From a virus (Duplodnaviria > Caudoviricetes), in the IMG/VR virus record IMGVR_UViG_3300030330_005258, positions 1-64,000 of that record: a DNA stretch of 64,000 nt; one strand, given 5' to 3'. How positions within the stretch are numbered: position 1 is the stretch's first letter; each line of letters begins with the position of its first letter. Under the pieces are notes generated by a model. The model was not told where the DNA came from. It worked only from the letters and a program-made list of their open reading frames with translations, and ran no database searches. Made by a program: the position numbers and the translations under genes. Of this stretch, positions 13,701 to 30,501 are shown in pieces.

Positions 13701-13871
13701 ATGTATCAGTATACAGTATTTGCCACAGTTGCAAAGCAAGAGATTGAACTGAAAACATTTTTTGATGATCTTGACGAGAAGCCAATGGAAAAGGCCAAGG
13801 CTCTTGTCGAAGCGAATAAGGGTAAGTTTCGCTCCATGCGAATCGAAAAACGAATCACCCCGATGCTGTGA
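13701..13871 (+). CDS. Hypothetical protein
   Basis: GGAG RBS; TGA lies inside the GTGAC box. Confidence 0.6.
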   Translation: MYQYTVFATVAKQEIELKTFFDDLDEKPMEKAKALVEANKGKFRSMRIEKRITPML

Positions 13872-13911
13872 CATTCCGTGACTTGACAACCCGCCACCCC
13901 CACGCTATATT
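13868..13911 (+). promoter_or_regulatory. Boxed early promoter
   Basis: GTGACATTCCGTGAC-TTGACA-17-TATATT. Confidence 0.85.
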
Positions 13912-13930
13912 ACAGGTGTGAGGAGAGAGA

Positions 13931-14125
13931 ATGACGCTGTATCGCGAAGGCACATTGTTGAGAGACTGCCTCGGTGCCCTGTGGATGATCACGGGCTATT
14001 GTAGAGACGATTTGTTCAGGCGCAAGCCAAATGCGTATGTCCTCAAGCGGCTGGCAGACTCTTCTATCAGTAAGCCTGAGTTTTGTATTGTCCATCGACA
14101 AATGGAACTGGTTTCGGAGGCATAA
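13931..14125 (+). CDS. Small GDLV-like protein
   Basis: YREGTLLRD...MELVSEA. Confidence 0.6.
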   Translation: MTLYREGTLLRDCLGALWMITGYCRDDLFRRKPNAYVLKRLADSSISKPEFCIVHRQMELVSEA

Positions 14126-14295
14126 TGAAGATAGGAGATTTGGTCAGGCACGCCAGTGAATGGGAAGATTCAAGAGGCATTGTTCTACAGTTTTATCCCG
14201 GCTGGGCAACGTATACCAAAGTTTATTGGCTTAGTCATAAACAGTACGGTTCTCATCCTGCTGATGACTTGGAGGTAATCAGTGAAGGTCGGTGA
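14125..14295 (+). CDS. Small GDLV-family protein
   Basis: MKIGDLVRH...LEVISEGR. Confidence 0.8.
   Translation: MKIGDLVRHASEWEDSRGIVLQFYPGWATYTKVYWLSHKQYGSHPADDLEVISEGR
14269..14295 (+). repeat. 27-nt gene-junction repeat, copy 1 (others at 14417, 17633, 17793, 17959)
   Basis: TTGGAGGTAATCAGTGAAGGTCGGTGA. Confidence 0.85.
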
Positions 14296-14443
14296 TATGG
14301 TAAAGTTTGTTGACGGCAAGATTATCGGTCTTGTTGTCGGCACCACAAATGCACCCGATGTCATTCAAGTCCTCTGGCTGCCCGCCCGCACACCTTCGCC
14401 CGCTCGGATCGATCGTTTGGAGGTAATCAGTGAAGGTGGGTGA
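14282..14443 (+). CDS. Small GDLV-family protein (not in ORF track)
   Basis: GTG start; MKVGDMVKFV...LEVISEGG. Confidence 0.75.
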   Translation: MKVGDMVKFVDGKIIGLVVGTTNAPDVIQVLWLPARTPSPARIDRLEVISEGG

Positions 14444-14627
14444 TTTGGTAAAGTTTCGGAAAGACACTTTCAGCGGTTCGGTCGCTTACGACCGCTACCG
14501 GCAACTTGGTATTATTCTTTCTTTTGACCAAGACGACGATCCGAACGTATTGTGGTTTCATCCAAGTTTTCACGGACAAACAGAACCAAACTTTCGTAAC
14601 CACATTGTAATGCTTTCAGAGTGTTGA
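14430..14627 (+). CDS. Small GDLV-family protein
   Basis: MKVGDLVKFR. Confidence 0.8.
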   Translation: MKVGDLVKFRKDTFSGSVAYDRYRQLGIILSFDQDDDPNVLWFHPSFHGQTEPNFRNHIVMLSEC

Positions 14628-14660
14628 CAAACTATTTACTTCTTCCAAAGGAGTATCCAA

Positions 14661-14744
14661 ATGCAAAGAGACATAATGGCCGACATCGGCATAATCGCTA
14701 CTATTGGTGCTGTCGCAGTTATTCTGGCAATCTTTTTCTACTGA
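14661..14744 (+). CDS. 27-aa membrane peptide
   Basis: ACTATTTA at 14631, AAGGAG RBS; MQRDIMADIGIIATIGAVAVILAIFFY. Confidence 0.55.
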   Translation: MQRDIMADIGIIATIGAVAVILAIFFY

Positions 14745-14753
14745 GAGGTAAAA

Positions 14754-15044
14754 ATGAGAGAAACATACGAAATGGTCCAGTGCGCAGATGGCTTTACCGT
14801 GTCTATTCAAGCCGGTAGCACTTTCTACTGCGAACCAAGATCAAACGCTGTAGGCGCATACGAAAGCGTGGAGCTTGGCTTTCCCAACAGACCTTGTATC
14901 TTTATCAAGGACTACGCAGAAGATCCCGAAAATCCAACCGGCTCAGTTTATGGATACGTTCCGGCGCACGTCGTTCGCAAGATGATTGCTGCACACGGCG
15001 GTATTGTATCCGGTGAGTGCCCACCGCTGGTGGAATCTGGCTGA
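14754..15044 (+). CDS. Hypothetical phage protein
   Basis: GAGG RBS; CADGFTVSIQAG...VELGFP...VYGYVP. Confidence 0.7.
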   Translation: MRETYEMVQCADGFTVSIQAGSTFYCEPRSNAVGAYESVELGFPNRPCIFIKDYAEDPENPTGSVYGYVPAHVVRKMIAAHGGIVSGECPPLVESG

Positions 15045-15874
15045 TGTTCAAGAGTCTGCTATTGGCGGCCATTTTCTCGGCACCCCAGCCGGAGTGGCTG
15101 CCTATAGCACATTCACAAGATCGCTGCGTTGTGCAAAACTGCTCGGTTGAGGTCAAGGCTTCCAAAGTTGGCATCAAGTATGCCAACAAGAAAAAAGTAT
15201 ATTCAACCTCTGTGCATTATGAAGAGGATGTCTTCTACCTTGATTATGTTCTCAGAAAGAGAATCCGAGACTTTCTACAAAAGCACCCAAACCAGCGCAA
15301 GTTTGTTGTGACTGGTTTTACAGATGGCTGCGGCTCACACCAATACAACAAAGAACTATCACGCAAACGAGCGAGCGAAGTTGCACGCTATGTAATCTCG
15401 CTGCGAGACGGCGCCGTTGTCAGTATGCGTTGGGTTGGAGAAGCCACCGGAGAACACACCGTAAGAGCCCGTAGAGTCGATCTAAGCGTCTCCAAAAACA
15501 TACAGGAACCTTTGGTCCCACCCAAAATAATAGCCGATTTCTACCTCATAGATAGTTCGGGCTCGATGGCAGATGAAGGCAGGTGGGCATCTTGGGTTTA
15601 TGCCATTAAGTATTGGAAACCAAGGCACGCGCGAGTATTCGTTTCAACGACAGAGTATGTGACAGGTGGTCGAGAGTTGGCCAACATAAGACCCAACGGA
15701 GGTACAGAGATCTGGTATTCATACTACCAGATTCTTGACAAGATGAAGCCGGGTCAGACTTTGTTAATCATTTCCGACTTTGATTCAGAAGTGAGACTTT
15801 CTACCCGAGAAGCAGAAATGATAGAAAGAAAAGTGCGTGCAAAAGGTGTGCGCGTCCAAGCCATCGACCTGTGA
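15044..15874 (+). CDS. Secreted OmpA-like peptidoglycan-binding domain plus vWA-like domain
   Basis: Signal peptide; GFTDGCGSHQYNKELSRKRA...ARRVDL (OmpA_C); IDSSGSM, GGTE, ISD (MIDAS). Confidence 0.8.
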   Translation: MFKSLLLAAIFSAPQPEWLPIAHSQDRCVVQNCSVEVKASKVGIKYANKKKVYSTSVHYEEDVFYLDYVLRKRIRDFLQKHPNQRKFVVTGFTDGCGSHQYNKELSRKRASEVARYVISLRDGAVVSMRWVGEATGEHTVRARRVDLSVSKNIQEPLVPPKIIADFYLIDSSGSMADEGRWASWVYAIKYWKPRHARVFVSTTEYVTGGRELANIRPNGGTEIWYSYYQILDKMKPGQTLLIISDFDSEVRLSTREAEMIERKVRAKGVRVQAIDL

Positions 15875-15914
15875 CATTTCGTGACTTGACGATCTGAGAT
15901 CCCCCGGATAGATT
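15871..15914 (+). promoter_or_regulatory. Boxed early promoter
   Basis: GTGACATTTCGTGAC-TTGACG-17-TAGATT. Confidence 0.8.
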
Positions 15915-15933
15915 ACAAAGGTAAGGAGAGCCT

Positions 15934-16131
15934 GTGTCATTGGACGACATCAACATCGGTGATTTGGTCAGAGCATAGGGCTGGGAAGAACTCTTGGTCG
16001 TCTCAGACATCTACTTTGATCTGTCCGAACAAACATGGTGCTTTGACGCTTACGGCTTGGAAAGCCGCCAAATGAATGACGGACTTTCTTTTGACTTGGA
16101 AGAACTAACAGTAGTTTCGAGGGCAGCATGA
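15934..16131 (+). pseudogene. GDLV-family gene interrupted by an in-frame TAG
   Basis: MSLDDINIGDLVRA*GWEELLVVSD...LTVVSRAA; TAG at 15976-15978. Confidence 0.7.
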
Positions 16132-16307
16132 AAGTAGGTAACATTGTGAAATGGCACACCGACACCGCGCACTTTGCCATAGTTTCCGGCATTGTCATCG
16201 ACACCTGTATGATTGACGGACTCCCCCACGCCACTGTCTTTTGGTTTGATTTGGGAGTTGAAAATCATCATCCCTACATGAACCTGACCACGATTTCGAG
16301 GGCATAA
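16128..16307 (+). CDS. Small GDLV-family protein (not in ORF track)
   Basis: MKVGNIVKW...LTTISRA. Confidence 0.75.
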   Translation: MKVGNIVKWHTDTAHFAIVSGIVIDTCMIDGLPHATVFWFDLGVENHHPYMNLTTISRA

Positions 16308-16486
16308 TGGAACAGATTTCATTTGTTATTCCTTTTGGCGACACAACTGACCCCGAAAAGGTTGCAAAGAAACTTGCCAAAGAGTTGCAGTTTCGCCAGT
16401 GGTATGTGAAGAGGGCAGATCGCGGCAACGACGAAGGTGTCGCAGCAACAACTTTCACCCTTATGGGTTGGACAACGGAGTGGTAG
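16307..16486 (+). CDS. Hypothetical protein (not in ORF track)
   Basis: MEQISFVIPF...; coupled start. Confidence 0.55.
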   Translation: MEQISFVIPFGDTTDPEKVAKKLAKELQFRQWYVKRADRGNDEGVAATTFTLMGWTTEW

Positions 16487-16487
16487 A

Positions 16488-16787
16488 ATGTTGGTGAAAG
16501 ACTTGAAAGTAGGTGCGATGTATCGACTGCAAGATTTTGTTGGATCGCCACAGAAGTTTAACTTTTGCTATTATCCTGACTTTGAGGACTGCATGGTATC
16601 CATTGTCAATGGTGAGGGTCTCGGCGACAAGTTTGTTTACTTGGGGACCAAGACGCTTGAATACAAGGAGGGCTCCTACAATCGACGCTACAAGAAGAAC
16701 ACATGGCGTCTTGGGTTGTTTGGCGACAAGGTGTTGCCAATCGCACCAGACATTTGGACTTACATTGAGCCAATGGAGGAAACATGA
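16488..16787 (+). CDS. GDLV-like protein
   Basis: MLVKDLKVGAMYRL. Confidence 0.7.
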   Translation: MLVKDLKVGAMYRLQDFVGSPQKFNFCYYPDFEDCMVSIVNGEGLGDKFVYLGTKTLEYKEGSYNRRYKKNTWRLGLFGDKVLPIAPDIWTYIEPMEET

Positions 16788-17047
16788 GAGTATCTGAACT
16801 GAAGGTCGGAGAACTTTACAAGATTCGTTCCGACCGCAAAACACACGTCCTTGTCCGTCGCGGGATGCTTGATGTCCATGTTGGCCATGGACACTTTGAA
16901 GCAGAAGCAAAGATCAGACCCTTCGACCATCTTGTCTATCTTGGCGGCATCGCCGGAAGTAGACGAGTGATGTATCGCGGTGAAAAGTTGCGGGTTTATC
17001 CCAACGTATGGCAGCACATCGTGCCCCTTGAGGATGACATTTCGTGA
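16784..17047 (+). CDS. GDLV-like protein
   Basis: MRVSELKVGELYKI; stop inside second GTGAC box. Confidence 0.7.
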   Translation: MRVSELKVGELYKIRSDRKTHVLVRRGMLDVHVGHGHFEAEAKIRPFDHLVYLGGIAGSRRVMYRGEKLRVYPNVWQHIVPLEDDIS

Positions 17048-17077
17048 CGTGACAGACTGAGATCCCCGTGCTATGTT
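17034..17077 (+). promoter_or_regulatory. Boxed early promoter
   Basis: ATGACATTTCGTGAC-GTGACA-17-TATGTT. Confidence 0.8.
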
Positions 17078-17096
17078 ACAGGGACAAGGAGAAGCC

Positions 17097-17447
17097 ATGC
17101 GTGCTCACATGATTGACTGTGCCGTCTGCGAAGAGACTTTCGACCTTCACTCGCCCGAGAAGAAGCGCGCGGGCGGTCTGCGTAACCATTGTCCCGACTG
17201 CGCGGAGGAAACGGCTGTGCCGTATCTCGCGGTCAATGGTGCCGATGGCAAGATGGCAGGTCTCACGATCCTTGCGTTTGATTCTGCCGAGGACCGAGAA
17301 AAGTATAAGAAGGCTTGGCACAACAATACTGGCATGAACAAGGGCAAGTCCTGTCACCTGTCCACTTCCAACACACCGATGAATGGTATGAAGTTTCGCC
17401 GCGTCGGTGAGAACTTTGGCAACTCCAACCACAAGGGTAAGTTGTAA
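17097..17447 (+). CDS. Zinc-ribbon protein
   Basis: CAVC...CPDC; AAGGAG RBS. Confidence 0.7.
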   Translation: MRAHMIDCAVCEETFDLHSPEKKRAGGLRNHCPDCAEETAVPYLAVNGADGKMAGLTILAFDSAEDREKYKKAWHNNTGMNKGKSCHLSTSNTPMNGMKFRRVGENFGNSNHKGKL

Positions 17448-17659
17448 TGAAGGTTGGTGATCTGATTAGGGTTCAATCCTTTCATGAACATATTTCAAAA
17501 TGTAAACTTTTCATTGTTATGAGAAGAGAAATAAACCCTCTTGGACATGAAATAGTTTGGATTTATCCAGATCCTGAACCTGAGCAGGATTACGATCATA
17601 CCGATGACGACAACTATTACTTCGCTGATGCGTTTGAGGTAGTCAATGAAAGTAGGTGA
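17447..17659 (+). CDS. Small GDLV-family protein
   Basis: MKVGDLIRV...FEVVNESR. Confidence 0.8.
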   Translation: MKVGDLIRVQSFHEHISKCKLFIVMRREINPLGHEIVWIYPDPEPEQDYDHTDDDNYYFADAFEVVNESR

Positions 17660-17819
17660 CATTGTGAGATTCAAGAAAGATGTTCTTGGTCTTGAAAACC
17701 AACGTGGCATTGTTGTTGCCGACAATGGAGGCGCTGTTGATGTTTATTGGTACAAGGGTCCCAAAATGGTCATTACCGACCTCAAAGAGTTTCTGGTGGT
17801 AGTCAATGAAAGTGGGTGA
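17646..17819 (+). CDS. Small GDLV-family protein (not in ORF track)
   Basis: MKVGDIVRF...LVVVNESG. Confidence 0.78.
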   Translation: MKVGDIVRFKKDVLGLENQRGIVVADNGGAVDVYWYKGPKMVITDLKEFLVVVNESG

Positions 17820-17985
17820 TCTGGTAAGAAACAAATGGCACCCCGAAAAGGGTCAAGGAATCATCTTAGGTTGGACGACGTTTGATGCCCGCCCAATGGC
17901 GCGACTCTTTTGGTTTGAGAATAAAACAAGTTATGAAAAGTATCATCTTCGGCATCACTTGGAGGTAATCAGTGAAAGTGGGTGA
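17806..17985 (+). CDS. Small GDLV-family protein (not in ORF track)
   Basis: MKVGDLVRN...LEVISESG. Confidence 0.78.
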   Translation: MKVGDLVRNKWHPEKGQGIILGWTTFDARPMARLFWFENKTSYEKYHLRHHLEVISESG

Positions 17986-18181
17986 TTTGATCCAGTCCTC
18001 TGCTTTTGAGGGACAAAACGGCATCGTCATTGAAACTGACCACGAGAATGACCCTGATGGCTCTTGGTATCATATTGTGTGGTTCAAAGTAAATCGCAAC
18101 TATGGCAGCAGTTTTACAAAAGATTGGGCACGCCACGAATGGTGTCGCAGCCACGAGATTGAACCCCACGACATTTCGTGA
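17972..18181 (+). CDS. Small GDLV-family protein
   Basis: MKVGDLIQS; stop inside second GTGAC box. Confidence 0.8.
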   Translation: MKVGDLIQSSAFEGQNGIVIETDHENDPDGSWYHIVWFKVNRNYGSSFTKDWARHEWCRSHEIEPHDIS

Positions 18182-18211
18182 CTTGACGATCTGCGATCAC
18201 CGGCATACATT
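18168..18211 (+). promoter_or_regulatory. Boxed early promoter
   Basis: ACGACATTTCGTGAC-TTGACG-17-TACATT. Confidence 0.85.
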
Positions 18212-18235
18212 ACAAGAGTAAGAAGGAGAACGCCG

Positions 18236-18586
18236 ATGGGCTACCGGTCTGATGTCATCTTTGCCTGCACCGCTGACGCTGTGCCTGTCCTGCTCGCGGA
18301 GGCTGGCAAAAGCCCAGCCCTCAAAGAGTTGCTGTTTGCCGACGCTGACGAAAAGTTGCTTGGAGACTACGACGGCTATGGTTCCTACCTGTTTCGCTGG
18401 GAGTGTATCAAGTGGTATAATAGCTCCCCATGGGTTCAGGCTTTCGACCAGATGATCGACAAGATTGAAGAAAAGCTGGATCAGGAAGCATACCGGTGGG
18501 TCTGTATCGGTGAAGAGTTGGACGACGTGCAGACCAAGGGATGGGGCTTTGACCACATTTACGTGCGCCGGGAGATTGAATACTAA
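18236..18586 (+). CDS. Hypothetical phage protein
   Basis: MGYRSDV...KWY...IGEELDD; AAGGAG RBS. Confidence 0.75.
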   Translation: MGYRSDVIFACTADAVPVLLAEAGKSPALKELLFADADEKLLGDYDGYGSYLFRWECIKWYNSSPWVQAFDQMIDKIEEKLDQEAYRWVCIGEELDDVQTKGWGFDHIYVRREIEY

Positions 18587-18822
18587 TGGCCAACGGATAC
18601 CAAATGTTTGAAAAGCTGCATCCTGTCGGCGGTCTCTACCGCTGCAAGGATCCTTTTCCCGATGATCCTTGGAAGTTTGGCAAAGTCTATATTCTGACAA
18701 AGTGGGAAGTTCCCGAGGGTCTCTCAGAAAAGTCCCCTCTTCGCAACGCTTACTTTTTTGTTGATGGCAAGGAGCGTTGTGTTGATATTTCTTTCTTTCG
18801 CTATTTGGAGCAAGTAGAATGA
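18586..18822 (+). CDS. Hypothetical protein
   Basis: Coupled ORF. Confidence 0.65.
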   Translation: MANGYQMFEKLHPVGGLYRCKDPFPDDPWKFGKVYILTKWEVPEGLSEKSPLRNAYFFVDGKERCVDISFFRYLEQVE

Positions 18823-19043
18823 AAGTAGGTGATTTGGTGCGACATAACGGCGGTGGTGGAGAACCACCCGCTATTGGCATCATTGTTGGAAGACACCCAG
18901 AATATAACTGGTGGGAGGTTTTGGAACTTTGTGGCGAGTATGTCGGTATCACAGCAGAAGCCGATTCCGAGGGTGACGGCTGGTTCGTTATTTCAGAAAT
19001 GTCCTTGACAGATGACGATCGCCCGGATACATTACAGGAGTAA
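18819..19043 (+). CDS. Small GDLV-family protein
   Basis: MKVGDLVRH; runs through the next promoter. Confidence 0.75.
   Translation: MKVGDLVRHNGGGGEPPAIGIIVGRHPEYNWWEVLELCGEYVGITAEADSEGDGWFVISEMSLTDDDRPDTLQE
19005..19033 (+). promoter_or_regulatory. sigma70-type early promoter
   Basis: TTGACA-17-TACATT, then ACAGGAGTAAGGAGA. Confidence 0.85.
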
Positions 19044-19052
19044 GGAGAGAAA

Positions 19053-19830: not shown

Positions 19831-20007
19831 ATGAAATGGACTGCCATTGTTGTCAACAGTGAAGGAGGATTTGACCATTCTTTTTCTTTTGTGAGTTCTC
19901 ACGCCAAAAGGGCTGCTTTTGAGGACGCACAGGAACAGACAGCACTTGAAGTGATCGCGATTGTCCCCGGCGATCATCCCGTCTACAACCCCGTTCTCGA
20001 CGTGTGA
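19831..20007 (+). CDS. Hypothetical protein (not in ORF track)
   Basis: GGGAG RBS; MKWTAIVV...; stop inside GTGAC box. Confidence 0.6.
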   Translation: MKWTAIVVNSEGGFDHSFSFVSSHAKRAAFEDAQEQTALEVIAIVPGDHPVYNPVLDV

Positions 20008-20046
20008 CATTTGGTGACTTGATCTTTCAACGGGATCGGTTACATT
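20004..20046 (+). promoter_or_regulatory. Boxed early promoter
   Basis: GTGACATTTGGTGAC-TTGATC-16-TACATT. Confidence 0.8.
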
Positions 20047-20067
20047 ACAAGAGAACAAGGAGAGCAC

Positions 20068-20981: not shown

Positions 20982-21034
20982 GTGACAAACCGAGACAAGA
21001 AAAGAGTGGCGAAGTTCCGCCACCGGGTTACATT
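20982..21034 (+). promoter_or_regulatory. Boxed early promoter, boxes shifted upstream
   Basis: GTGACAAACCGAGAC...GTGGCG-17-TACATT. Confidence 0.7.
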
Positions 21035-21056
21035 ACAGAAGCAACAGGGAGCCACG

Positions 21057-21311
21057 ATGGGCGCACGATTCACGATTGTCCTCGACACGGATGACCCACA
21101 GGGTCTTCGCGATGCCTTGGAGATCGCCACCATTCTGAACAGGAACCACGGCACTCTCGGTGGCAACCCTTCCGCCAAGGCAAAGATCGGAAAGATCGCA
21201 CTGATCAAGATGGTCCGAGAAGTGGCAAGGAACGTGGAAGAAGGAAAGTTGTCATCTTCTCTTCGTGACTCCAAGCGGTTCGTTGACGGAAAGTGGCAAC
21301 TTTTGCTGTGA
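21057..21311 (+). CDS. Protein with ribosomal bL12 (L7/L12) C-terminal-like motif
   Basis: KIALIKMVREVA...SLRDSKRFVD resembles the bL12 K..VIK.VR...GLKEAKDLVE pattern. Confidence 0.6.
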   Translation: MGARFTIVLDTDDPQGLRDALEIATILNRNHGTLGGNPSAKAKIGKIALIKMVREVARNVEEGKLSSSLRDSKRFVDGKWQLLL

Positions 21312-21350
21312 CATTTCGTGACTTGACAATCTGACCTGATCGGTTACATT
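21308..21350 (+). promoter_or_regulatory. Boxed early promoter
   Basis: GTGACATTTCGTGAC-TTGACA-16-TACATT. Confidence 0.85.
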
Positions 21351-21405
21351 ACAAGGGTGAGAGGGGCGATGGTCGCTCCCCCCGAAAGAAAATCAAAAAA
21401 ACTAC

Positions 21406-21433: not shown

Positions 21434-21494
21434 ACAAGAGAACGGGCGGCGACTGCCCTCCAAATGTCGCACGAAGCCAGACCGGAGTTTTCAC

Positions 21495-22786: not shown

Positions 22787-23015
22787 CAAACTCAAAGAAG
22801 GTGATCTTGTTGTAAGCAGGGCAAACAAAAAGCCCTACATTGTGCTGGAGATCCAAAAATACCATAAAAGGGTATACGGCTCAGGTTCGCCCGGTTCCAT
22901 GCGTAAAAAGTTTTTACTACTTTTTCCAGATGGACGACAAAGGTGGAAGATTGACACCGCACTGAAAGTAGAGTATTATCTGCCCGGCGATCCGTGGTTC
23001 GATGACATTCGTTGA
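22773..23015 (+). CDS. Small GDLV-family protein
   Basis: LKEGDLVVS; stop inside box. Confidence 0.72.
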   Translation: MAKIDKLKEGDLVVSRANKKPYIVLEIQKYHKRVYGSGSPGSMRKKFLLLFPDGRQRWKIDTALKVEYYLPGDPWFDDIR

Positions 23016-23055
23016 CAAAAAACCGCTTGCCTGTCTCCGGGTGAGCGGTTACATT
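23002..23055 (+). promoter_or_regulatory. Boxed early promoter, boxes shifted upstream
   Basis: ATGACATTCGTTGAC...TTGCCT-17-TACATT. Confidence 0.75.
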
Positions 23056-23074
23056 ACAAGAGTAAGGAGAGAAC

Positions 23075-24301
23075 ATGCCTGACAAGCCTTTCGACCTCAA
23101 CCTCCACACGGCGCGTCTGCTCATGCGCGAGCCGTTCTTCGCCGCCCTGTCTCGCCGGATTGACAAGATCCGTACCGACAGCGTGCCGACTGCTGGCGTC
23201 CGTGTCAACCCCACCAGCGCCCAGTTTGAGTTGTTCTACAACCCCAAGTTCATGGGTGCTTTGAAGGACGAGCACAAGTTGGGTGTTTTGATGCACGAGT
23301 TCTATCACATTGTTTTCGAGCATGTGACGACTCGCAAGCCAGAAGGCGGCATCAGGCGCATCGACAACATCGCGATGGACCTTGCGATCAATGGTCTTTC
23401 CGAGATGTCTGGAAAGTTGCCCTGTGAGGCTGATCCCGGTCCCGTGCTCACCGAGGGCGGCGAGCCGATGAAGGGCTGTTTGCCCGGTGAGGGCAAGTTT
23501 GCCCATCTTCCTGCCAATATGACTTACGAGTGGTATCTCGCTGAGTTGGAAAAGATGGAAGAAGAGGCGCAACAGAACGGCGAAGGCTCTCCGTTCGGCG
23601 AGGATGACGACTTCGATGTCCACGAGGGTTTCGGCGAGGGCGGTGGCAACGCACAAGCCAACGAGATCGCCAAGGAGCGCATCAAGGAAGCGATCCGCAA
23701 GGCAGCAGAAGAAGCCGACAAGGCTGGTTCATGGGGCTCTGTGTCCTCTGCTATGCGGAAGACCATCAAGGAGCGGTTGGCTACCAAAGTTGACTGGAAG
23801 AAGATGCTTCGCTACTTTGTGCGTACTTCCCAGCGTGCAGACAAGAGGTCTACTCCGCGTCGTCTCAACAAGCGGTTTCCAAAGATTCATCCCGGTAAGC
23901 GTGTCCGCCGTCAGGCAAAGATCGCTATTTCCATCGACCAGTCTGGTTCTGTGGATGATGGGATGCTCGCTGCGTTCTACTCCGAGTTGGACAACCTCGC
24001 ACAGTTTGCCGAGTTTACGGTGATCCCGTTTGATACCGAGGTCGCCACCGACAAGGTGTATGTGTGGAAGAAGGGCGAGCGCCGCAAGGCTGAACGTGTC
24101 CTGCATGGCGGAACCTGCTTCGATGCTCCTACCAAGTTTGTCAATGATGGCAAGTTTGACGGGCACATCGTTCTGACCGACATGATGGCACCCAAGCCTA
24201 TTGCCTCAAAGTGCCAGCGTATGTGGATGACTACCGCAGAATACGCGCGTAACCCGTACTTCACCACTTCCGAGGTCGTGGTGTCCATTGACCGCAAGTG
24301 A
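23075..24301 (+). CDS. DUF2201-type metallopeptidase plus vWA-like protein
   Basis: GVLMHEFYH (HExxH), NIAMDLAIN, IDQSGSV, GGTCF, LTD. Confidence 0.88.
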   Translation: MPDKPFDLNLHTARLLMREPFFAALSRRIDKIRTDSVPTAGVRVNPTSAQFELFYNPKFMGALKDEHKLGVLMHEFYHIVFEHVTTRKPEGGIRRIDNIAMDLAINGLSEMSGKLPCEADPGPVLTEGGEPMKGCLPGEGKFAHLPANMTYEWYLAELEKMEEEAQQNGEGSPFGEDDDFDVHEGFGEGGGNAQANEIAKERIKEAIRKAAEEADKAGSWGSVSSAMRKTIKERLATKVDWKKMLRYFVRTSQRADKRSTPRRLNKRFPKIHPGKRVRRQAKIAISIDQSGSVDDGMLAAFYSELDNLAQFAEFTVIPFDTEVATDKVYVWKKGERRKAERVLHGGTCFDAPTKFVNDGKFDGHIVLTDMMAPKPIASKCQRMWMTTAEYARNPYFTTSEVVVSIDRK

Positions 24302-24351
24302 CAAACGGTGACAGGATCGGGGTGGCGCAAGTCGCCCCGGTCGGTTACATT
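24298..24351 (+). promoter_or_regulatory. Boxed early promoter, boxes shifted upstream
   Basis: GTGACAAACGGTGAC, weak -35, CGGT-TACATT-ACAGGAGTAAGGAGA. Confidence 0.75.
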
Positions 24352-24370
24352 ACAGGAGTAAGGAGAGAAG

Positions 24371-24702: not shown

Positions 24703-24706
24703 ACAA

Positions 24707-25095: not shown

Positions 25096-25280
25096 AAGAA
25101 GGAACACTCGTCCAGCACCCTTCTCGGGGTAAAGCCTTTGTGACCGAGATTCTGGAGGCTAACGCTTTTGAGCCCATTCGAGTCCGCTGGTTGAATGCCT
25201 ACACTCACGTAACAGGCAAAAAAGTAACAACTTCCGTCATCTGGCAACACGAAATCACCATCATTTCAGAAGGAGAGTAA
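25092..25280 (+). CDS. Small GDLV-family protein
   Basis: MKEGTLVQH...TIISEGE. Confidence 0.72.
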   Translation: MKEGTLVQHPSRGKAFVTEILEANAFEPIRVRWLNAYTHVTGKKVTTSVIWQHEITIISEGE

Positions 25281-25281
25281 A

Positions 25282-25473
25282 ATGAGACCCATTTTCAAGA
25301 CCATCGCAAAAGACATCATTGTCCTGTCCGCACAGGCTGTAGCGTTTCGGCTGGCAGCACCGCAGGATCAGCAGCAGGACGTGATCTTCGCTGCCGTCCC
25401 TACCAAGGGACCGCCGACGATCAAGGCGCTTCCCGGCGAGAATCAGCCACAGGCGCGCAAGGTCGGATTCTGA
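25282..25473 (+). CDS. Hypothetical protein
   Basis: AAGGAG RBS; stop at box. Confidence 0.6.
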   Translation: MRPIFKTIAKDIIVLSAQAVAFRLAAPQDQQQDVIFAAVPTKGPPTIKALPGENQPQARKVGF

Positions 25474-25514
25474 GACATTTCGTTACTTGACTTTTTCGCC
25501 TAAGCGGTTACATT
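25472..25514 (+). promoter_or_regulatory. Boxed early promoter
   Basis: GAGACATTTCGTTAC-TTGACT-16-TACATT. Confidence 0.8.
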
Positions 25515-25536
25515 ACAAGAGTACCAAGGAGGCATC

Positions 25537-25692
25537 ATGCCAGAACTCGACACCAAGATCCACCGCACCGCTGAAACCCTTGATCGCCTGATGGCTGCCC
25601 TTGTGGCTGCTGGCACGGCAAAGATGGACCCAACCGCAGGGCAAGCGATCCTGCTTCTCTTCTGCGCTGGTCAGGAACCAGCAGAAGCATGA
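25537..25692 (+). CDS. Hypothetical protein (not in ORF track)
   Basis: AAGGAGG RBS; MPELDTKIHR... Confidence 0.65.
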   Translation: MPELDTKIHRTAETLDRLMAALVAAGTAKMDPTAGQAILLLFCAGQEPAEA

Positions 25693-25805
25693 AACTGACC
25701 GAGAAACAGCAGCAGCAGGTCTTTGTTATCGTTTTGTGCCTCGATGGACTTGTTTGCTGTATTCTGGCAGCGGCACTTTTCAACTACTTTGGATGGACAC
25801 TGTGA
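25689..25805 (+). CDS. Small membrane protein (not in ORF track)
   Basis: ATGA overlap; single TM. Confidence 0.55.
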   Translation: MKLTEKQQQQVFVIVLCLDGLVCCILAAALFNYFGWTL

Positions 25806-25819
25806 AAGATACCAAGAAG

Positions 25820-26005
25820 ATGAGCACCTATGACGCTGTGATGATTGCCGAGGGAGTCTATGAAGGCGACACCGCCCAGATGCAAGAAGCGTGGCAGATT
25901 CTCGTGGATACGGGTCTCGCATGGTCCCTACAAGGTTGGTTCGGTCGCGAGGCTACCCGCCTGATCGAAGCCGGCGTCATTCAGCCCTTTCCGCGCCCCT
26001 CCTGA
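25820..26005 (+). CDS. Hypothetical phage protein
   Basis: AWQILVDTGLAWSLQGWFGREATRLIEAG; start uncertain. Confidence 0.65.
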   Translation: MSTYDAVMIAEGVYEGDTAQMQEAWQILVDTGLAWSLQGWFGREATRLIEAGVIQPFPRPS

Positions 26006-26029
26006 CTATTTAGTCAAAAGGAGCCCTCG

Positions 26030-26173
26030 ATGGCAAAACGCACCAAAACGAAGAAGCCAAAACGTCGCAACATTATCGCTGTTGCGGCTCGTTCGCGTTC
26101 TGGTGCTGGTCGCCATCCTGACCGGAAGAAAAGGGCCAACAAGCGAGCCTGCCGAGGAAAGGTGCCAGAATGA
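26030..26173 (+). CDS. 47-aa very basic protein (not in ORF track)
   Basis: ACTATTTA at 26005, AAGGAG RBS; MAKRTKTKKPKRRNIIAVAARSRSGAGRHPDRKKRANK... Confidence 0.7.
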   Translation: MAKRTKTKKPKRRNIIAVAARSRSGAGRHPDRKKRANKRACRGKVPE

Positions 26174-26448
26174 CGAAACGAGTGACTTTGCAGCCCGGCG
26201 ATCTTGTCTGCTACAATGTAGGAGGCGCAAAAGAGACCAGTTTGGCTCACGTTGTGGAGGTTCGGCACCCAAAGCAGCGCCAAACGCTTGCTCTCATTGC
26301 CGGTGATATGGAAGACCGACAAGGCTCCATTTTCGTCCTCTGGATCAAAGTGGGTGAATACAAGCCCCGCTCGTGGGATTACGACGTAAAGCCGGGAAAG
26401 GTGGTAAAACACCCCTATACATCTGCTTTTGAAAAGGTGCGAGAATGA
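26170..26448 (+). CDS. GDLV-family protein
   Basis: LQPGDLVCY. Confidence 0.7.
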   Translation: MTKRVTLQPGDLVCYNVGGAKETSLAHVVEVRHPKQRQTLALIAGDMEDRQGSIFVLWIKVGEYKPRSWDYDVKPGKVVKHPYTSAFEKVRE

Positions 26449-26561
26449 ACAAGAAAGAAATCATCATCGACGGCATTTGTGCCATTTTGGGCGGTCTCGC
26501 CTTTTATGTAGCATTTTGCATGGCAGCGATTCTGGATCAGATTCACGCCGTAGGGCTGTGA
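26445..26561 (+). CDS. Small membrane protein (not in ORF track)
   Basis: ATGA overlap; stop inside GTGAC box. Confidence 0.55.
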   Translation: MNKKEIIIDGICAILGGLAFYVAFCMAAILDQIHAVGL

Positions 26562-26600
26562 CATTTGGTGACTTGACAAATCGCCCCAACGGGTTACATT
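26558..26600 (+). promoter_or_regulatory. Boxed early promoter
   Basis: GTGACATTTGGTGAC-TTGACA-16-TACATT. Confidence 0.85.
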
Positions 26601-26621
26601 ACAGGAGTAAGGAGAGAAAAG

Positions 26622-26855
26622 ATGCCAACGCACGAACGAGAGCGAACCGACCACATGAGCCGCGAAGAGATCGAGTATGAGGTCCGAACGCGCCCCACCC
26701 ACAGGATCGAGGTATGGGAGACCGTCCCGGTGTGGGAACAAGACAGCGGAGCCAACGACGAGGGCTACTGCTACGAGCACTGTGGCGCCTGCGGTCGTGT
26801 CACCGAGCACGACGACTGTGGCACCTGCCTTGACCAGTCCTGTGACATTTGGTGA
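26622..26855 (+). CDS. Small acidic Cys-rich protein
   Basis: CGAC...H...C; stop inside second box. Confidence 0.65.
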   Translation: MPTHERERTDHMSREEIEYEVRTRPTHRIEVWETVPVWEQDSGANDEGYCYEHCGACGRVTEHDDCGTCLDQSCDIW

Positions 26856-26884
26856 CTGGACAAATCCACAAAACCGGTTACATT
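26842..26884 (+). promoter_or_regulatory. Boxed early promoter
   Basis: GTGACATTTGGTGAC-TGGACA-16-TACATT. Confidence 0.8.
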
Positions 26885-26906
26885 ATAGAAGAACCAAGGA
26901 GAGAAG

Positions 26907-27176
26907 ATGAGAAACCAAGACGTGATCCGTTCCTTCGCATGGGGCAAGCGCGCCGCCGCTGGCAACCTTCAGACTGACGGGCGCTCGCTCTGGTCGTATG
27001 ACCTGAAGATCGCCCACCGCACGCCGGAAGGCGTCGTGGTCGGGGACTTCACCGCACCGGGTGGCGACTTCCACTCGGTCACCACCAGCAAGCACGTCGG
27101 CATGGCAAAGCGCGAAGCGCACACGATCATGCTGCCGGAACTCTTCACCGATCTCTATTCTGATATGCCCTTCTGA
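26907..27176 (+). CDS. Hypothetical phage protein
   Basis: LWSYDLKIA...SVTTSKHV; AAGGAG RBS. Confidence 0.72.
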   Translation: MRNQDVIRSFAWGKRAAAGNLQTDGRSLWSYDLKIAHRTPEGVVVGDFTAPGGDFHSVTTSKHVGMAKREAHTIMLPELFTDLYSDMPF

Positions 27177-27187
27177 GGAGGTTTCCC

Positions 27188-27394
27188 GTGGGTGAACTTG
27201 TTTCCCTTTGCCGATACCGCGCAGAAAAGCGCCAAGAAGCAGAAGCAGCCGCACAAGCGGAACTCGATGCGCTCCGCGAGATCGTGGACGCATGGATCGA
27301 ATACATGGGCGAGCCCGAGAGCGCGCCAATCATGGTCCCTCTCGACCAGCAACTCGATCCTGTGACATTTGATGACTTGACGATCTGGACCTGA
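27188..27394 (+). CDS. Hypothetical protein
   Basis: GGAGG RBS; reads through the boxes. Confidence 0.6.
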   Translation: MGELVSLCRYRAEKRQEAEAAAQAELDALREIVDAWIEYMGEPESAPIMVPLDQQLDPVTFDDLTIWT

Positions 27395-27405
27395 CCGGAT
27401 ACATT
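27362..27405 (+). promoter_or_regulatory. Boxed early promoter
   Basis: GTGACATTTGATGAC-TTGACG-17-TACATT. Confidence 0.82.
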
Positions 27406-27429
27406 ATAGAAGAACCAAGGAGAGAACCC

Positions 27430-27684
27430 ATGCCCATCCCTTCCGAGTACGTTTCCCGTGGAGTCCGCATCCCCCGTGACGAGGGCGTCTTCCACTTCCA
27501 CCGACGCCGCGACGGACACGGAGACGGTTGCGTCGTCCGCACATGGAAGATCGAGGGCAAGTCCCAAAAGGACGTGATCACCCGCGACTGCATGGGACTC
27601 GACCACGCCGAATGTCTCGTGGATGACCACTTGGAAGAGATGGCGTACCTTCTCGACGCCGCCTGCGCCGAGTTCGGATTCTGA
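27430..27684 (+). CDS. Hypothetical protein
   Basis: Follows promoter-RBS; stop at box. Confidence 0.68.
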   Translation: MPIPSEYVSRGVRIPRDEGVFHFHRRRDGHGDGCVVRTWKIEGKSQKDVITRDCMGLDHAECLVDDHLEEMAYLLDAACAEFGF

Positions 27685-27725
27685 GACATTTGGTGACTTG
27701 ACATTTTCCCGAAACAGGTTACATT
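27683..27725 (+). promoter_or_regulatory. Boxed early promoter
   Basis: GAGACATTTGGTGAC-TTGACA-16-TACATT. Confidence 0.85.
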
Positions 27726-27778
27726 ATAGGGGTGAGAGGGAGATAGGCTCCCGCGCTCCTCACTCCTCTGGAGAGTAC

Positions 27779-28009
27779 ATGAAGAAGAAGACCGACGCCC
27801 GCCGCTACCGCTACAGCCTTCACGGCGACATCAAGATCGACACCCGCTCGAACCGCCAGCCCCGTAAGGCTGTCGGCTACATCGCCGAGCGCGTTCGCTC
27901 CGGTGGTCGTGTGTGGCGCGAGCACAAGGACGGGTCGATCTCGTGGCTCTGCGATACGGTCCTCTTCTCGACCGCTGAAAGCATGGTGGCGGACTTCGCG
28001 ACCGGCTGA
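27779..28009 (+). CDS. Hypothetical protein
   Basis: GGAG RBS, ATG 27779; stop at box. Confidence 0.65.
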   Translation: MKKKTDARRYRYSLHGDIKIDTRSNRQPRKAVGYIAERVRSGGRVWREHKDGSISWLCDTVLFSTAESMVADFATG

Positions 28010-28060
28010 GACAAACGGTGACAAAGATCACCTTGACATTTTCCCCCAACGTGATACATT
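28008..28060 (+). promoter_or_regulatory. Boxed early promoter, boxes shifted upstream
   Basis: GAGACAAACGGTGAC-N10-TTGACA-16-TACATT. Confidence 0.82.
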
Positions 28061-28139
28061 ATAGATGTGAGAGGGAGATACGCTCTCGCTCACTTTTCCC
28101 CCGGCTCGACCGAGCCACCCCAAGACCCGGAGTCCTACC

Positions 28140-28553
28140 ATGGCTAACCTCTTCGTCCTGAACCTTGATGGTACTATCGCCCCTGTCGCCGCCGACAAGA
28201 ACTGCAACGCGCTGATCGCGCACGCCGTCTCCATCCTCGCGGGCGACTCCGAGGTCCCGACCGCTCCTGAGCCCATCGACGTGGACGCTGCGGTCGCTGC
28301 CCTTTTCAGCAAGGTCGCCACGGGTGCCCTCACTCCTGCCGAGGGCATGGCGGCTGCGAAGGCGGTAGAGAAGGAAGCCGAGGCGGCTGCGAAGGCTGCG
28401 AAGGCTGACCCGCCTGTCCTGCTGCTCGCTGGCACCCCTGCGACCGCTGCCGAGGTCAAACGCGCGTTCCGTGGTGCGGAGAGCGGCACCACCGTCGAGG
28501 TTGCTTCGCTCGACAACGAGCGCGTCGGCACGATCACCATGTTCCGGGTCTGA
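28140..28553 (+). CDS. Ala-rich hypothetical protein
   Basis: GGAG RBS; strongly GC-biased third positions. Confidence 0.72.
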   Translation: MANLFVLNLDGTIAPVAADKNCNALIAHAVSILAGDSEVPTAPEPIDVDAAVAALFSKVATGALTPAEGMAAAKAVEKEAEAAAKAAKADPPVLLLAGTPATAAEVKRAFRGAESGTTVEVASLDNERVGTITMFRV

Positions 28554-28975: not shown

Positions 28976-29049
28976 CTTTACCTTCCGAGAACCAAAAGAA
29001 AACAAAAGCCCCCGCCCATATAGGGCACAACCCGACCGGAGAATGCAAC

Positions 29050-29499
29050 ATGCTTCCAACCCCAGCCCAAATGTCCGCCGTTGACCCCCGCGCAAGCCGC
29101 CTCCTCTATCATATCCGCAAGCATATGCAACGCGACGGAATCCGAGGCGCAACCGAACAGACCATCGCGCTGCGCATCGGGCGCTGGGGCGACCTTGCCA
29201 ACTGGTTCGAACCTCTGATCAAGAGCCGCCCGTCCCGTGAACATACGGTCAAGGAAGCGAATCGCACCATGTATGCGACCGGTTGGCAAATCAAGAAGGC
29301 GTCGATCCGGCGCGTTACCCAACTGGGCAACTGGAGCGAGAACGAGCACCTGCACCTGCAAATGGACTTCGATCCTGCACGGATGACCCCCGACGCCGTC
29401 GCTGCCCGCGAGGAAGAAGAACGCCGTGCCGCCATCTCTGAACTGGAAGCCGAGATGGAAGCCCTGCGTGAGAGGATGGAAGCGATCCGCGCTGCCTAA
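29050..29499 (+). CDS. Hypothetical protein with C-terminal coiled coil
   Basis: GGAG RBS. Confidence 0.68.
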   Translation: MLPTPAQMSAVDPRASRLLYHIRKHMQRDGIRGATEQTIALRIGRWGDLANWFEPLIKSRPSREHTVKEANRTMYATGWQIKKASIRRVTQLGNWSENEHLHLQMDFDPARMTPDAVAAREEEERRAAISELEAEMEALRERMEAIRAA

Positions 29500-29553
29500 G
29501 CGCCTACCTTCCGAGAACCCAAAGAAAAGAAAACATAGAGAGAGGATAGAACC

Positions 29554-29643
29554 ATGCTTGCAGTAATCCTACTCCTTACATGGTATGCATGTTTCGCCTC
29601 TGCCATTGTAGCAGGATGGAAAGAACCCACCTTTGATGCATAG
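29554..29643 (+). CDS. 29-aa membrane peptide
   Basis: GAGGA RBS; hydrophobic. Confidence 0.45.
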   Translation: MLAVILLLTWYACFASAIVAGWKEPTFDA

Positions 29644-29802
29644 TGCATAGGGTTCGTGTTTGATCTTTGACATTTTGTATATGTTTGGTGAGAGCCTTGG
29701 ATGGTTCTGTCTGCGGCGTGTCCTGCGGTGAGGGTCTGATCAGATCCCATCGCAGGCACATTGTCAAGGACAGAAATCGTCCGCATTTCGAGCAGGATCC
29801 CC

Positions 29803-29831
29803 TTGACAGGCGCACCCTGACGGGTTACATT
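29803..29831 (+). promoter_or_regulatory. sigma70-type early promoter
   Basis: TTGACA-17-TACATT. Confidence 0.82.
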
Positions 29832-29879
29832 ATAGGTGTTGGGGGAAGGAACCCCCGCGCCTCACGCTCTGGAGAGCCC

Positions 29880-30095
29880 TTGTACCGTACCGCCCGCATC
29901 ACGTTCACCAGTAACAGTTTCTCCTTCGCCCGCTGCCAGAAGGGCAAGCATCACACCACGGACGGCTCCATCTGGTACGATGAGAGCACGACGGCAGAAG
30001 AGGCTGCCCGTGAGGTTCGGAACGCTCTGCGCCGGAACCTCCGCGGTGAGCACGCTCGCGTCGTCTCGTGGGAACTGGTCCCGCTCGCTTCCTGA
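29880..30095 (+). CDS. Hypothetical protein
   Basis: TTG start after CGCTCTGGAGAGCC leader. Confidence 0.55.
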   Translation: MYRTARITFTSNSFSFARCQKGKHHTTDGSIWYDESTTAEEAAREVRNALRRNLRGEHARVVSWELVPLAS

Positions 30096-30138
30096 GCACC
30101 TGACAGCAACCCCAACACCCCAACGCTCTGGAGAGCCT

Positions 30139-30390
30139 ATGCCCATGCCATTCGAAAACCTTCGCACCTTCCTCCGCACCTGCCCGGATGCCACCATCAC
30201 CAAGATCGACCACCCGTCTGAATCCATCTTCTTCACCGAGAAGGGGCGTCAGTGGGTGATGATCTTCGATGGCGAGAAGGTCGATGGTGTCTGGGATATG
30301 ACGCCTGCCGACGACAACTGGGATGAGATCGTGCAGGACCAGCAGGAGCGTCGGTCTGTCGGTGCGTGCTTCGGTGGCTGGAAAGCCTGA
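30139..30390 (+). CDS. Hypothetical protein
   Basis: ATG after CGCTCTGGAGAGCC leader. Confidence 0.65.
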   Translation: MPMPFENLRTFLRTCPDATITKIDHPSESIFFTEKGRQWVMIFDGEKVDGVWDMTPADDNWDEIVQDQQERRSVGACFGGWKA

Positions 30391-30451
30391 TTTTGAGAAC
30401 CCCCATAAACAGGGCATTCTATAACAGGTGCCCTTGGGGGAACTAAACCTT

Positions 30452-30501
30452 TGTCAGCACTTGTCTCAGGTGCTTGCAAGATCCTCAGAACTGGTTATAT
30501 T
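30452..30501 (+). promoter_or_regulatory. Early promoter with inverted box pair
   Basis: TGTCA and TGTCT 10 bp apart; TTGCAA-16-TATATT. Confidence 0.65.

Follow-up and report, generated by a model that had tools for sequence, protein, structure and literature searches.

A phased pair of direct-repeat boxes upstream of early promoters in an uncultured marine phage related to T4

Introduction

Reiterated early promoters have been described in the T4-type coliphages RB49 and phi1, where they form PeSLs (promoter-early stem-loop cassettes), a subclass of which carries a stem-loop over the -35 hexamer (Arbiol et al. 2010, PMC2839356). Here we analyze an array of 15 promoters in a stretch of 64,000 nucleotides (nt), positions 1 to 64,000 of the IMG/VR virus record IMGVR_UViG_3300030330_005258 (the window); each of these promoters has two GTGAC-like boxes in direct repeat upstream of its -35 position (boxed promoters). 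Like PeSLs, they are strong sigma70-type intergenic promoters reiterated between small ORFans in a hyperplastic region; three of the 15 have a G/C-rich stem-loop over the -35 and spacer, and some gains and losses involve a promoter together with its gene. They differ from PeSLs in having a helically phased GTGAC pair where PeSLs have an AT-rich tract, in that 12 of the 15 lack a significant stem-loop upstream of the -10, and in that synteny breaks do not appear to be enriched at them.

The other close parallel is found among the binding sites of response regulators. PhoP binds as a head-to-tail dimer to a box made of two directly repeated hexamers with an N5 gap, and PhoP boxes occur in a few fixed, phased architectures that permit contact with the alpha C-terminal domain (alpha-CTD) or sigma (PMC3335776). 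CenR, an essential alphaproteobacterial regulator, recognizes sites such as TGACGCAGCTGTGAA and TGGCGCAGGCGTGAC with the motif TGA-N8-TGA, and these sites lie upstream of the -35 where CenR activates (PMC9275681). The boxed promoters share with OmpR/PhoB-family sites the two half-sites of 5-6 bp in direct repeat, the period of 10-11 bp, the fixed and phased position at or upstream of the -35, and the imperfect -35s of activated promoters; with CenR they also share the half-site word GTGAC/TGAC. They differ from CenR sites in a spacing that is one base shorter than the CenR consensus, and from OmpR/PhoB sites in general in belonging to a phage genome and in their density of 15 copies within 14 kb.

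Judged by the promoters compared below, the window's elements are a compact G-type variant of a clade-wide early promoter with three boxes. What is new is that box type and spacing switch together genome-wide, that the distances between boxes and promoter are restricted to helically phased values, also among orthologous promoters, that the -35 is weaker where boxes are present, and that boxes and A/T tracts replace one another in relatives. Narrow keyword searches of the literature turned up no published description of such boxed promoters, which is weak evidence of absence.

Results

Anatomy and census of the boxed promoters

A sequence-only reading of the window had listed 15 boxed sites; every one of its coordinates holds (Table 1), as does the geometry that it described. 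At the 11 compact sites the distances upstream of the -35 start are exactly 15 nt for box 1 and exactly 5 nt for box 2, whereas at the four shifted sites box 1 is 24-25 nt away. The compact sites follow the pattern (G/A)(T/A/C)GAC-N5-(G/A)T(G/T)AC, with the -35 directly after. That the elements are sigma70-type promoters is borne out by TTGACA-like -35 hexamers, spacers of 16-17 nt, and a -10 that reads TACATT in 11 of the 15. A -35 is present in 13 of them, and the other two boxed promoters have none that is recognizable. The -10 is preceded by GGT (G at -14 only) and not by a TGn motif. The promoter core TTGACA-N16/17-TACATT combined with an AGGAG ribosome site occurs 23 times between 11.4 and 32.5 kb, always on one strand.

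Allowing up to one mismatch, the box pair GTGACNNNNNGTGAC (GTGAC-N5-GTGAC) has 17 matches in the window, compared to an expectation of 2.9 +/- 1.7 from 100 dinucleotide shuffles, none of which reached 17. Of these matches, 13 are located at 13868-28022 on the + strand. The contig of which the window forms the first 64 kb is 154.6 kb long and rated 64% complete; over this contig a looser box pattern matched 13 times on the + strand (11 of these inside the promoter-dense block) and twice on the - strand, and beyond the block box matches occur at chance level only. A search of IMG/VR for an exact 20-mer returned three single matches, all unrelated.

Among the compact sites (n = 11), conservation begins sharply 2 nt before box 1 (CTGTGACATTTSGTGAC). 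The boxes and the inter-box bases, a 15-mer, carry 1.6-1.8 bits per position, the -35 1.5 bits, the spacer 0.7 bits, and the 30 nt upstream 0.4 bits. Because conservation covers these 2 nt and the whole 15-mer, the unit under selection is the 17-bp CTGTGACATTTSGTGAC and extends beyond the two pentamers.

The genes upstream of the elements were reported earlier to stop at a box in 13 of 15 cases; the corrected figure is 12 of 15 open reading frames (ORFs) that end on a TGA in or touching a box. The stop offsets are +1 in five, +11 in four, and -1 in three of these ORFs (cTGAgac, where box 1 is GAGAC). The boxes offer TGA in two of the three frames, and none of the genes is read in the remaining one. 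The overlap, of which part had been suspected to be automatic, is real and is mostly explained by the TGAs of the boxes and tight gene packing. The inverted pair proposed at 30452 is doubtful. It occurs once, where the base composition would give about 0.6 such pairs by chance, and it does not keep the phase of the direct sites. A stem AGCAC...GTGCT is the better reading, and the TGTCA-N5-TGTCT found there is probably a chance match or a hairpin outside the boxed class.

Box type, spacing, and phase in relatives

The VWA/DUF2201 protein encoded at 23075-24301 has 189 relatives in viral contigs, and 80 of the loci were examined. About 55 of the 80 have promoters of the form YTGACA-N5-YTGACA-N9-TTGAC in the same block, and this 11/15 design comprises 201 unique promoters. 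Like the window's elements, these three-box promoters have a normal -35 and -10 that are preceded, in phase, by two directly repeated boxes resembling a -35; in both cases the promoters are on one strand of a hyperplastic block near MoxR and VWA genes, and upstream genes end on the TGAs of the boxes. They differ in the box word (YTGACA in the clade versus GTGAC in the window), in the repeat spacing (11 versus 10 bp), and in the location of box 2 (15 versus 5 bp from the -35, the latter in 11 of the window's 15 sites). The TACATT -10 and the unusually GC-rich block are further peculiarities of the window.

The 10-bp spacing with G-type boxes was found only in the window and in loci L012, L031, L034, and L081. 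L012 is part of genome G001, the closest relative of the window at 90%. L034, whose VWA protein is 69% identical, has 10 perfect GTGAC-N5-GTGAC sites, four with box 1 at 15 nt (compact) and six at 25 nt, and its -10 hexamers are TATAAT, GATAAT, and TATACT. Since L034 shares the boxes but not the -10 hexamers of the window, the boxes are conserved independently of the core promoter. The loose pattern RWGAC-N5-DWKAC, searched in 18 records, performed no better than the control.

The distance from the boxes to the promoter varies in steps of the helix. In 544 unique promoters from 81 loci box 2 is 5, 15, or 25/26 nt from the -35, and 35 of the 40 pairs outside the canonical 11/15 class are in phase, a count that is inflated by relatedness among the promoters. 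Orthologous promoters of the window and G001 illustrate this: box 1 is at 25 nt in the window versus 36 nt in G001 for the promoters at 23002 and 24298, and at 15 versus 36 nt for the one at 25472, whose G001 orthologue has a 21-bp insert between boxes and -35. The indels that separate these promoters are 11 or 21 bp long and keep the phase.

Within any one genome, a single spacing is used across all boxed promoters. The promoter before the VWA gene reads TTGAC-N6-TTGAC-N10-TTG (11/15) in six T-type loci; it is of the 10/15 type in L034, L031, and the window, of the 10/26 type in L012, and has an A/T tract in L086 and L072. In a phylogeny of the VWA protein (one gene, calculated in a quick maximum likelihood search), the 10-bp type is found in at least two and probably three places: the window with L012, L031 with L034, and L081 beside the T-type locus L069. 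A joint, genome-wide switch of box word and spacing is what a change of the trans-acting reader predicts.

The promoters of G001 contain two further kinds of upstream sequence. At 40428, 44210, 45745, 47467, 48782, and 49628 a conserved AAAGATCGTAGC(N9) module lies between box 2 and the -35, which moves the boxes, degenerate in this genome (nnGAC), about two turns upstream. A third upstream type, CTTTCCTTCCACTTTCCCC, is present at 51885, 52117, and 52542.

Strength of the -35 and replacement of boxes by A/T tracts

Besides the boxed promoters, the block has at least eight others that share the core but lack boxes. Six of these (11416, 11693, 11781, 19028, 21428, and 29826) have a perfect TTGACA -35, and in five of the six a stretch of 64-73% A+T precedes it, the exception being 29826 (41%); the unboxed promoters at 30496 and 32485 have weaker -35 hexamers. 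The 15 boxed sites have CTGTGACATTTSGTGAC in this place (41-68% A+T), and an A+T-rich stretch was found only in the five unboxed promoters. When the window and G001 are taken together, a perfect TTGACA is present in 9 of 21 boxed versus 18 of 20 unboxed promoters (Fisher p = 0.0025), a count for which 21029, 24346, and G001 45213 were placed in the boxed class by hand and three non-promoter matches were dropped.

A/T-rich tracts occupy the position of the boxes in outgroup loci such as L086, and in L027; the distant relatives, with VWA proteins 53-59% identical, mostly have A/T tracts where boxes would be. Boxes and A/T-rich UP-like tracts are interchangeable in relatives, and the boxes occupy the same position as UP elements. 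L027 (genome G015) falls inside the boxed clade on the VWA tree, yet all its early promoters have long A/T tracts and no boxes; read against that tree, L027 is a case in nature of UP-like sequence having taken the place of boxes.

Gene turnover and stem-loops

The sequence-only reading had also suggested that the repeat may act as a recombination joint, with synteny breakpoints falling at the boxes. The comparison to G001 lends this no specific support. The two sequences are collinear, with 65-94% DNA identity and many small differences, and in a hand tally synteny was broken at 16 of the 22 informative gene junctions that lack a promoter and, as commonly, at 12 of the 16 that have one. Some of the differences are units of promoter plus gene: G001 has three extra at 51.6-52.6 kb, and at 44.1-45.1 kb its zinc-finger gene has been duplicated together with its own promoter. 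The window's gene at 27430-27684 was swapped between two conserved promoters. The promoter at 13868 corresponds to the G001 promoter at 38993, which has the same rare ATTCC between its boxes, and is conserved while the flanks on both sides are non-homologous; the one at 20004 is conserved whole. About 8 of 15 events are promoter-less single-gene indels (e.g., 16488-16787 and 18236-18586). Turnover affects the entire block, one gene at a time, and does not appear to favor the boxed promoters as joints; a role in recombination would be a side effect at best.

A significant stem-loop between box 2 and the -10 was detected in three of the 15 boxed promoters: at 20982 (GTGGCG..CGCCAC, -10.5 kcal/mol, z -2.3), at 23002 (over the -35 and spacer, -20.5 kcal/mol, z -5.3), and at 24298 (-23.8 kcal/mol, z -5.6). 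None was significant in the other 12. These three sites are PeSL-like because they carry the stem-loop. The leader hairpins after the promoters at 21308, 27683, and 28008 fold no better than shuffled sequences. Similar leaders (GUGAGAGGGAGA..loop..CUC(C/U)C..CUCAC) stand behind four promoters, in the stretches 27720-27780, 28055-28140, 29826-29885, and 30496-30555, in each case with the next start codon only 55-85 nt later and with fold energies no better than shuffles; a 5' stabilizer and a small RNA are possible roles.

The source phage and its early block

The window belongs to an uncultured marine T4-related phage. Its contig contains a T4-type major capsid gene (Pfam Gp23 match), whose closest cultured relatives are 34-37% identical (Microcystis phage Mel-JY01, the nearest at 37%, and Rhodothermus phage RM378); no DNA-level relatives of the window were found among cultured phages. 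A search for the host through the phage's S21 gene in 185,000 genomes gave one match, which was uninformative.

All genes surrounding the boxed promoters are on the + strand. The block consists of densely packed small genes, mostly unannotated, downstream of host-type promoters; those with an annotation encode a MoxR-like ATPase, the VWA/DUF2201 protein, an OmpA-like protein, and a zinc-finger protein. From this gene content, the earlier description of the block as a host-takeover regulon is plausible. The GC content is 47-50% at 8-20 kb and 54-59% at 20-32 kb, compared to mostly 34-47% in the remaining window. Six tRNA genes are located at the start of the promoter-dense block, where the unboxed promoters 11693 and 11781 face the tRNA cluster, and an Rfam scan of 9-34 kb recovered these six tRNAs and nothing else.

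Table 1. Coordinates of boxed and unboxed promoters in the window. Boxes are given as box 1/box 2; distances of box 1 are from the -35.
Position	Strand	Class	Boxes	-35	-10	Remarks
11393..11789	+	three unboxed, same core		TTGACA	at 11416, 11693, 11781	64-73% A+T upstream
13868..13914	+	compact	GTGAC/GTGAC	TTGACA (13883)	TATATT (13906)	gene start 13931
15871..15917	+	compact	GTGAC/GTGAC	TTGACG	TAGATT	stop of upstream OmpA-like gene is the box 1 TGA
17034..17080	+	compact	ATGAC/GTGAC	GTGACA	TATGTT	gene start 17097
18168..18214	+	compact	ACGAC/GTGAC	TTGACG	TACATT	gene start 18236
19005..19036 (19028)	+	unboxed, same core		TTGACA		64% A+T stretch upstream
20004..20049	+	compact	GTGAC/GTGAC	TTGATC	TACATT	before zinc-finger gene 20068-20895
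20982..21037	+	box 1 at 24 nt	GTGAC/GAGAC	no good -35 (GTGGCG)		
21308..21353	+	compact	GTGAC/GTGAC	TTGACA		
21406-21436 (21428)	+	unboxed, same core		TTGACA		83 bp downstream of the promoter at 21308; 68% A+T stretch upstream
23002..23058	+	box 1 at 25 nt	ATGAC/TTGAC	TTGCCT		before VWA/DUF2201 gene 23075-24301
24298..24354	+	box 1 at 25 nt	GTGAC/GTGAC	no good -35		third TTGAC 10 nt upstream
25472..25517	+	compact	GAGAC/GTTAC			upstream stop cTGAgac
26558..26603	+	compact	GTGAC/GTGAC	TTGACA		
26842..26887	+	compact	GTGAC/GTGAC	TGGACA		
27362..27408	+	compact	GTGAC/ATGAC	TTGACG		
27683..27728	+	compact	GAGAC/GTGAC	TTGACA		followed by leader hairpin
28008..28063	+	box 1 at 25 nt	GAGAC/GTGAC	TTGACA		boxes followed by AAAGATCACC; no stem-loop
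29803..29834 (29826)	+	unboxed, same core		TTGACA		41% A+T upstream; leader hairpin
30452..30504	+	promoter		TTGCAA	TATATT	preceded by TGTCA-N5-TGTCT

Several other features of the block were observed. A TilS-like gene (PP-loop family, 10810-11406) and the six tRNAs, which serve A/U-ending codons, adjoin the GC-rich part; on one reading the early genes may be tuned to the tRNA pool of a GC-richer host, with later genes depending on the phage tRNAs. At least nine small genes (starts at 14125, 14282, 14430, 16128, 17447, 17646, 17806, 17972, and 18819) begin with MKVGD(L/I/M)V and share the junction TTTGGAGGTAATCA G/ATG AAAGTGGGTGAT. They form a tandemly amplified family of small genes, and their conserved junctions could serve as a recombination substrate for promoter-less gene indels. 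The product of the zinc-finger gene at 20068-20895 matches PF16588, starts with a CxxC...H...C pattern, and is kept in boxed and unboxed relatives. In the tandem arrangement at 21308-21500, the boxed promoter leads into a short hairpin leader and is followed by the unboxed promoter; the pair precedes the MoxR-like AAA ATPase gene and then the VWA/DUF2201 gene, an arrangement that is kept in G001.

Discussion

A proposed docking site for a head-to-tail dimer

In the model that we prefer, the elements would be early promoters read by the host RNA polymerase with its primary sigma factor in a hyperplastic early region, and the 17-bp CTGTGACATTTSGTGAC would dock a DNA-binding protein in two copies that are arranged head to tail, one helical turn apart, and share their face of the DNA with the polymerase. 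The docked protein would recruit or position the polymerase and thereby compensate for imperfect -35 hexamers, in a mode like that of OmpR/PhoB-family response regulators at direct-repeat boxes. This phage carries the G allele (GTGAC, 10 bp), mostly in the tightest register, whereas most relatives carry YTGACA at 11 bp. Upstream genes end on the box TGAs because the region is packed without spacers.

Taken together, the phasing, the concerted alleles, the weak -35s, and the UP-like position agree with an activator that makes its contact from one side of the helix, and they agree less well with a repressor or with a scaffold that serves recombination alone. From them we infer that a protein binds and that it activates rather than represses. 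A dimer that docks head to tail and in phase and helps to recruit the polymerase is the mechanism with the best support, and we hold it to be about as likely as not. By analogy, the most likely reader, as a first guess, would be a constitutively present host regulator of the OmpR/PhoB family. The tandem-binding regulator of the sequence-only reading has thus gained in one respect, through the phase kept across indels, the concerted change of box and spacing, and the weaker -35s, and not in another, as no binding protein was identified.

Several observations weigh against this model. Paralogous and related promoters are not independent, so the phasing and covariation counts and their nominal p values are inflated, and the independent events number roughly 3-5. 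The window has TGA-N7-TGA where the published CenR motif is TGA-N8-TGA, which only the T-type relatives match. The nearest cultured capsid, from a Microcystis phage and 37% identical, is too remote for inferring the host. In the compact sites box 2, at 5 bp from the -35, would equally suit a repressor that occludes sigma. On the side of the protein, Trans_reg_C, AsiA, MotA, and GerE were not found in five phage records (three complete), where for AsiA and MotCF the control genomes cannot give a positive for these phage families. Of 47 ORFs that occur in boxed genomes only, Pfam could name a Dam methylase, a thioredoxin, a tubulin, and ribosomal protein S21, and no DNA-binding Pfam domain was detected among the 47. 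The head-tagged proteins of the window that were scanned, candidates for an injected activator, also showed no DNA-binding domain. Among genes shared only by the G-type (10-bp) lineages, none was convincing.

Three further candidates were rejected. The zinc-finger protein encoded at 20068-20895 is present in boxed and unboxed genomes alike; a CRP-like site was set aside as its second half is not inverted here; and the Pho box shares its core TGTCA only on the opposite strand and differs in spacing and position. The Dam methylase, of phage type (PF05869; G001:15657-16136 and relatives), occurs in 5 of 5 complete boxed genomes versus 0 of 5 complete unboxed ones. This association is probably phylogenetic because Dam is also present in the unboxed G015. 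By eye, GATC is found in many promoter spacers of the window (e.g., 15871, 18168, 27362, and 28008) and in the AAAGATCGTAGC module of G001.

Alternative readers and functions

The most interesting alternative reader, on suggestive evidence, is a small zinc-binding phage protein with a helix-turn-helix like that of sigma70 region 4.2, which would recruit the polymerase or later block the real -35 and so shut off the early genes. The protein has about 80-96 amino acids, and ORFs of 83-105 amino acids match PF04545 with 26-41 bits, above the Pfam cut-off, in G001, G002, G003, G012, G005, G008, and G006. Five invariant cysteines precede its helix-turn-helix, its best matches among solved structures are all to rpoD region 4, and the alignment runs into the C-terminal tail of sigma70; the PDB E-values are weak (0.05-0.9), and the structure model is poor (pLDDT 62) and without a significant Foldseek match. 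The boxes themselves look like a -35, TTGACA in most relatives and GTGACA in the window. For the recognition helix, three boxed genomes have the sequence SFAR and the likewise boxed G012 has SFVR; the two unboxed genomes in the alignment have SIVR. However, the protein is present in every complete relative, boxed or not, and does not track the boxes, and the copy in the G-type genome G001 has no change that matches the G/T or 10/11 switch. In sigma70, R584 and E585 read the -35; in this protein the -35-reading residues are replaced by the hydrophobic F/I and A/V. Its C-terminal tails (SDYLF, NLELF, and ILSCF), which we take to resemble the clamp-binding tails of T4 gp33 and gp55, point to a possible co-activator of late transcription instead, and the protein may be such a co-activator that still resembles sigma region 4. 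The gene, at G001:18396-18686 (L195:1366-1653), lies outside the window's contig, whose first base aligns with G001 position 23891. We consider it unlikely that this protein reads the boxes. The specific version in which a free-standing copy of sigma70 region 4.2 reads them in trans, tethering or gating the host polymerase at early promoters, we consider about as unlikely; if true, it would be a case of trans reading by a sigma domain in which box word and spacing co-evolve with a phage protein and not with the host.

The boxes might alternatively be the operator of a phage or host repressor that turns the early block off. Box 2 abuts the -35 in 11 of the 15 sites and could exclude sigma region 4, and T4-type phages must shut off early transcription in some way, with AsiA and MotA not found in this clade. 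Against this, the -35s of the boxed promoters are weaker and not stronger; the same boxes also occur at 15 and 26 bp, where occlusion is impossible, A/T-rich UP-like tracts replace them in relatives, and two boxed promoters have no recognizable -35. We hold an operator to be a poor prospect.

It is equally doubtful that no separate protein is involved and that the boxes are contacts of the polymerase itself, made by the alpha-CTD, perhaps once an injected phage enzyme has modified it, or by sigma region 4. Contacts of the alpha-CTD are helically phased too, which counts for this explanation, and the boxes stand at the UP-element position and alternate with A/T tracts. The early promoters of T4 have extra conserved positions and respond to Alt-modified alpha (PMC2988021). 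But the alpha-CTD reads A/T-rich minor grooves and not GTGAC. Conservation of the box is highest over GAC, but TTG is the part that sigma region 4 reads best, and a holoenzyme has a single region 4. A switch of box sequence and spacing between close relatives is also hard to explain with a conserved polymerase.

Least of all do we expect the repeat to be a mobile scaffold that provides stops and homology for gene gain and loss and has no role in transcription: a box contains the stop of 12 of the 15 upstream genes, in places G001 differs by a promoter together with its gene, and three sites have stem-loops as in PeSLs (PMC2839356), but promoter junctions are not enriched for breakpoints (12 of 16 versus 16 of 22), about 8 of the 15 events lack a promoter, and neither the helical phasing nor the 10-versus-11 covariation nor the weaker -35s are predicted by it.

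Comparison to other phage promoters

The early "uber" promoters of T4 (Hinton 2010, PMC2988021) are likewise of host type, contain extra upstream information, and are clustered before small early genes. They differ in that T4 has an A/T-rich UP element and a TGn, whereas the window has a G/C-containing direct repeat and a GGT extended -10, and in that AsiA and MotA were not found in the window's clade. This last result also sets the elements apart from T4 middle promoters, in which a MotA box at -30 replaces the -35; a -35 is present in 13 of the window's 15.

Host-regulator sites are found in phage promoters elsewhere. The Spo0A boxes at the early promoters of phi29 are such sites. The CtrA boxes in alphaproteobacterial phages are likewise sites of a host master regulator in phage promoters (PMC9437464). 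With CtrA and Spo0A sites the phage program follows the state of the host. Binding at these sites is established, and its effect is mostly a delay or repression of lytic growth, whereas in the window binding is predicted and the evidence favors activation.

Implications

If the boxes dock a regulator, then in these abundant uncultured ocean phages the first wave of expression would depend on a specific protein as well as on the strength of the promoter. The promoters also constitute a natural promoter-spacing experiment, in which the same boxes stand 5, 15, or 26 bp before the -35. As the alleles GTGAC (10 bp) and YTGACA (11 bp) switch across whole genomes between close relatives, they could mark which reader, and perhaps which host, a phage uses, and the 17-bp module is short enough to be used directly as bait for that reader.

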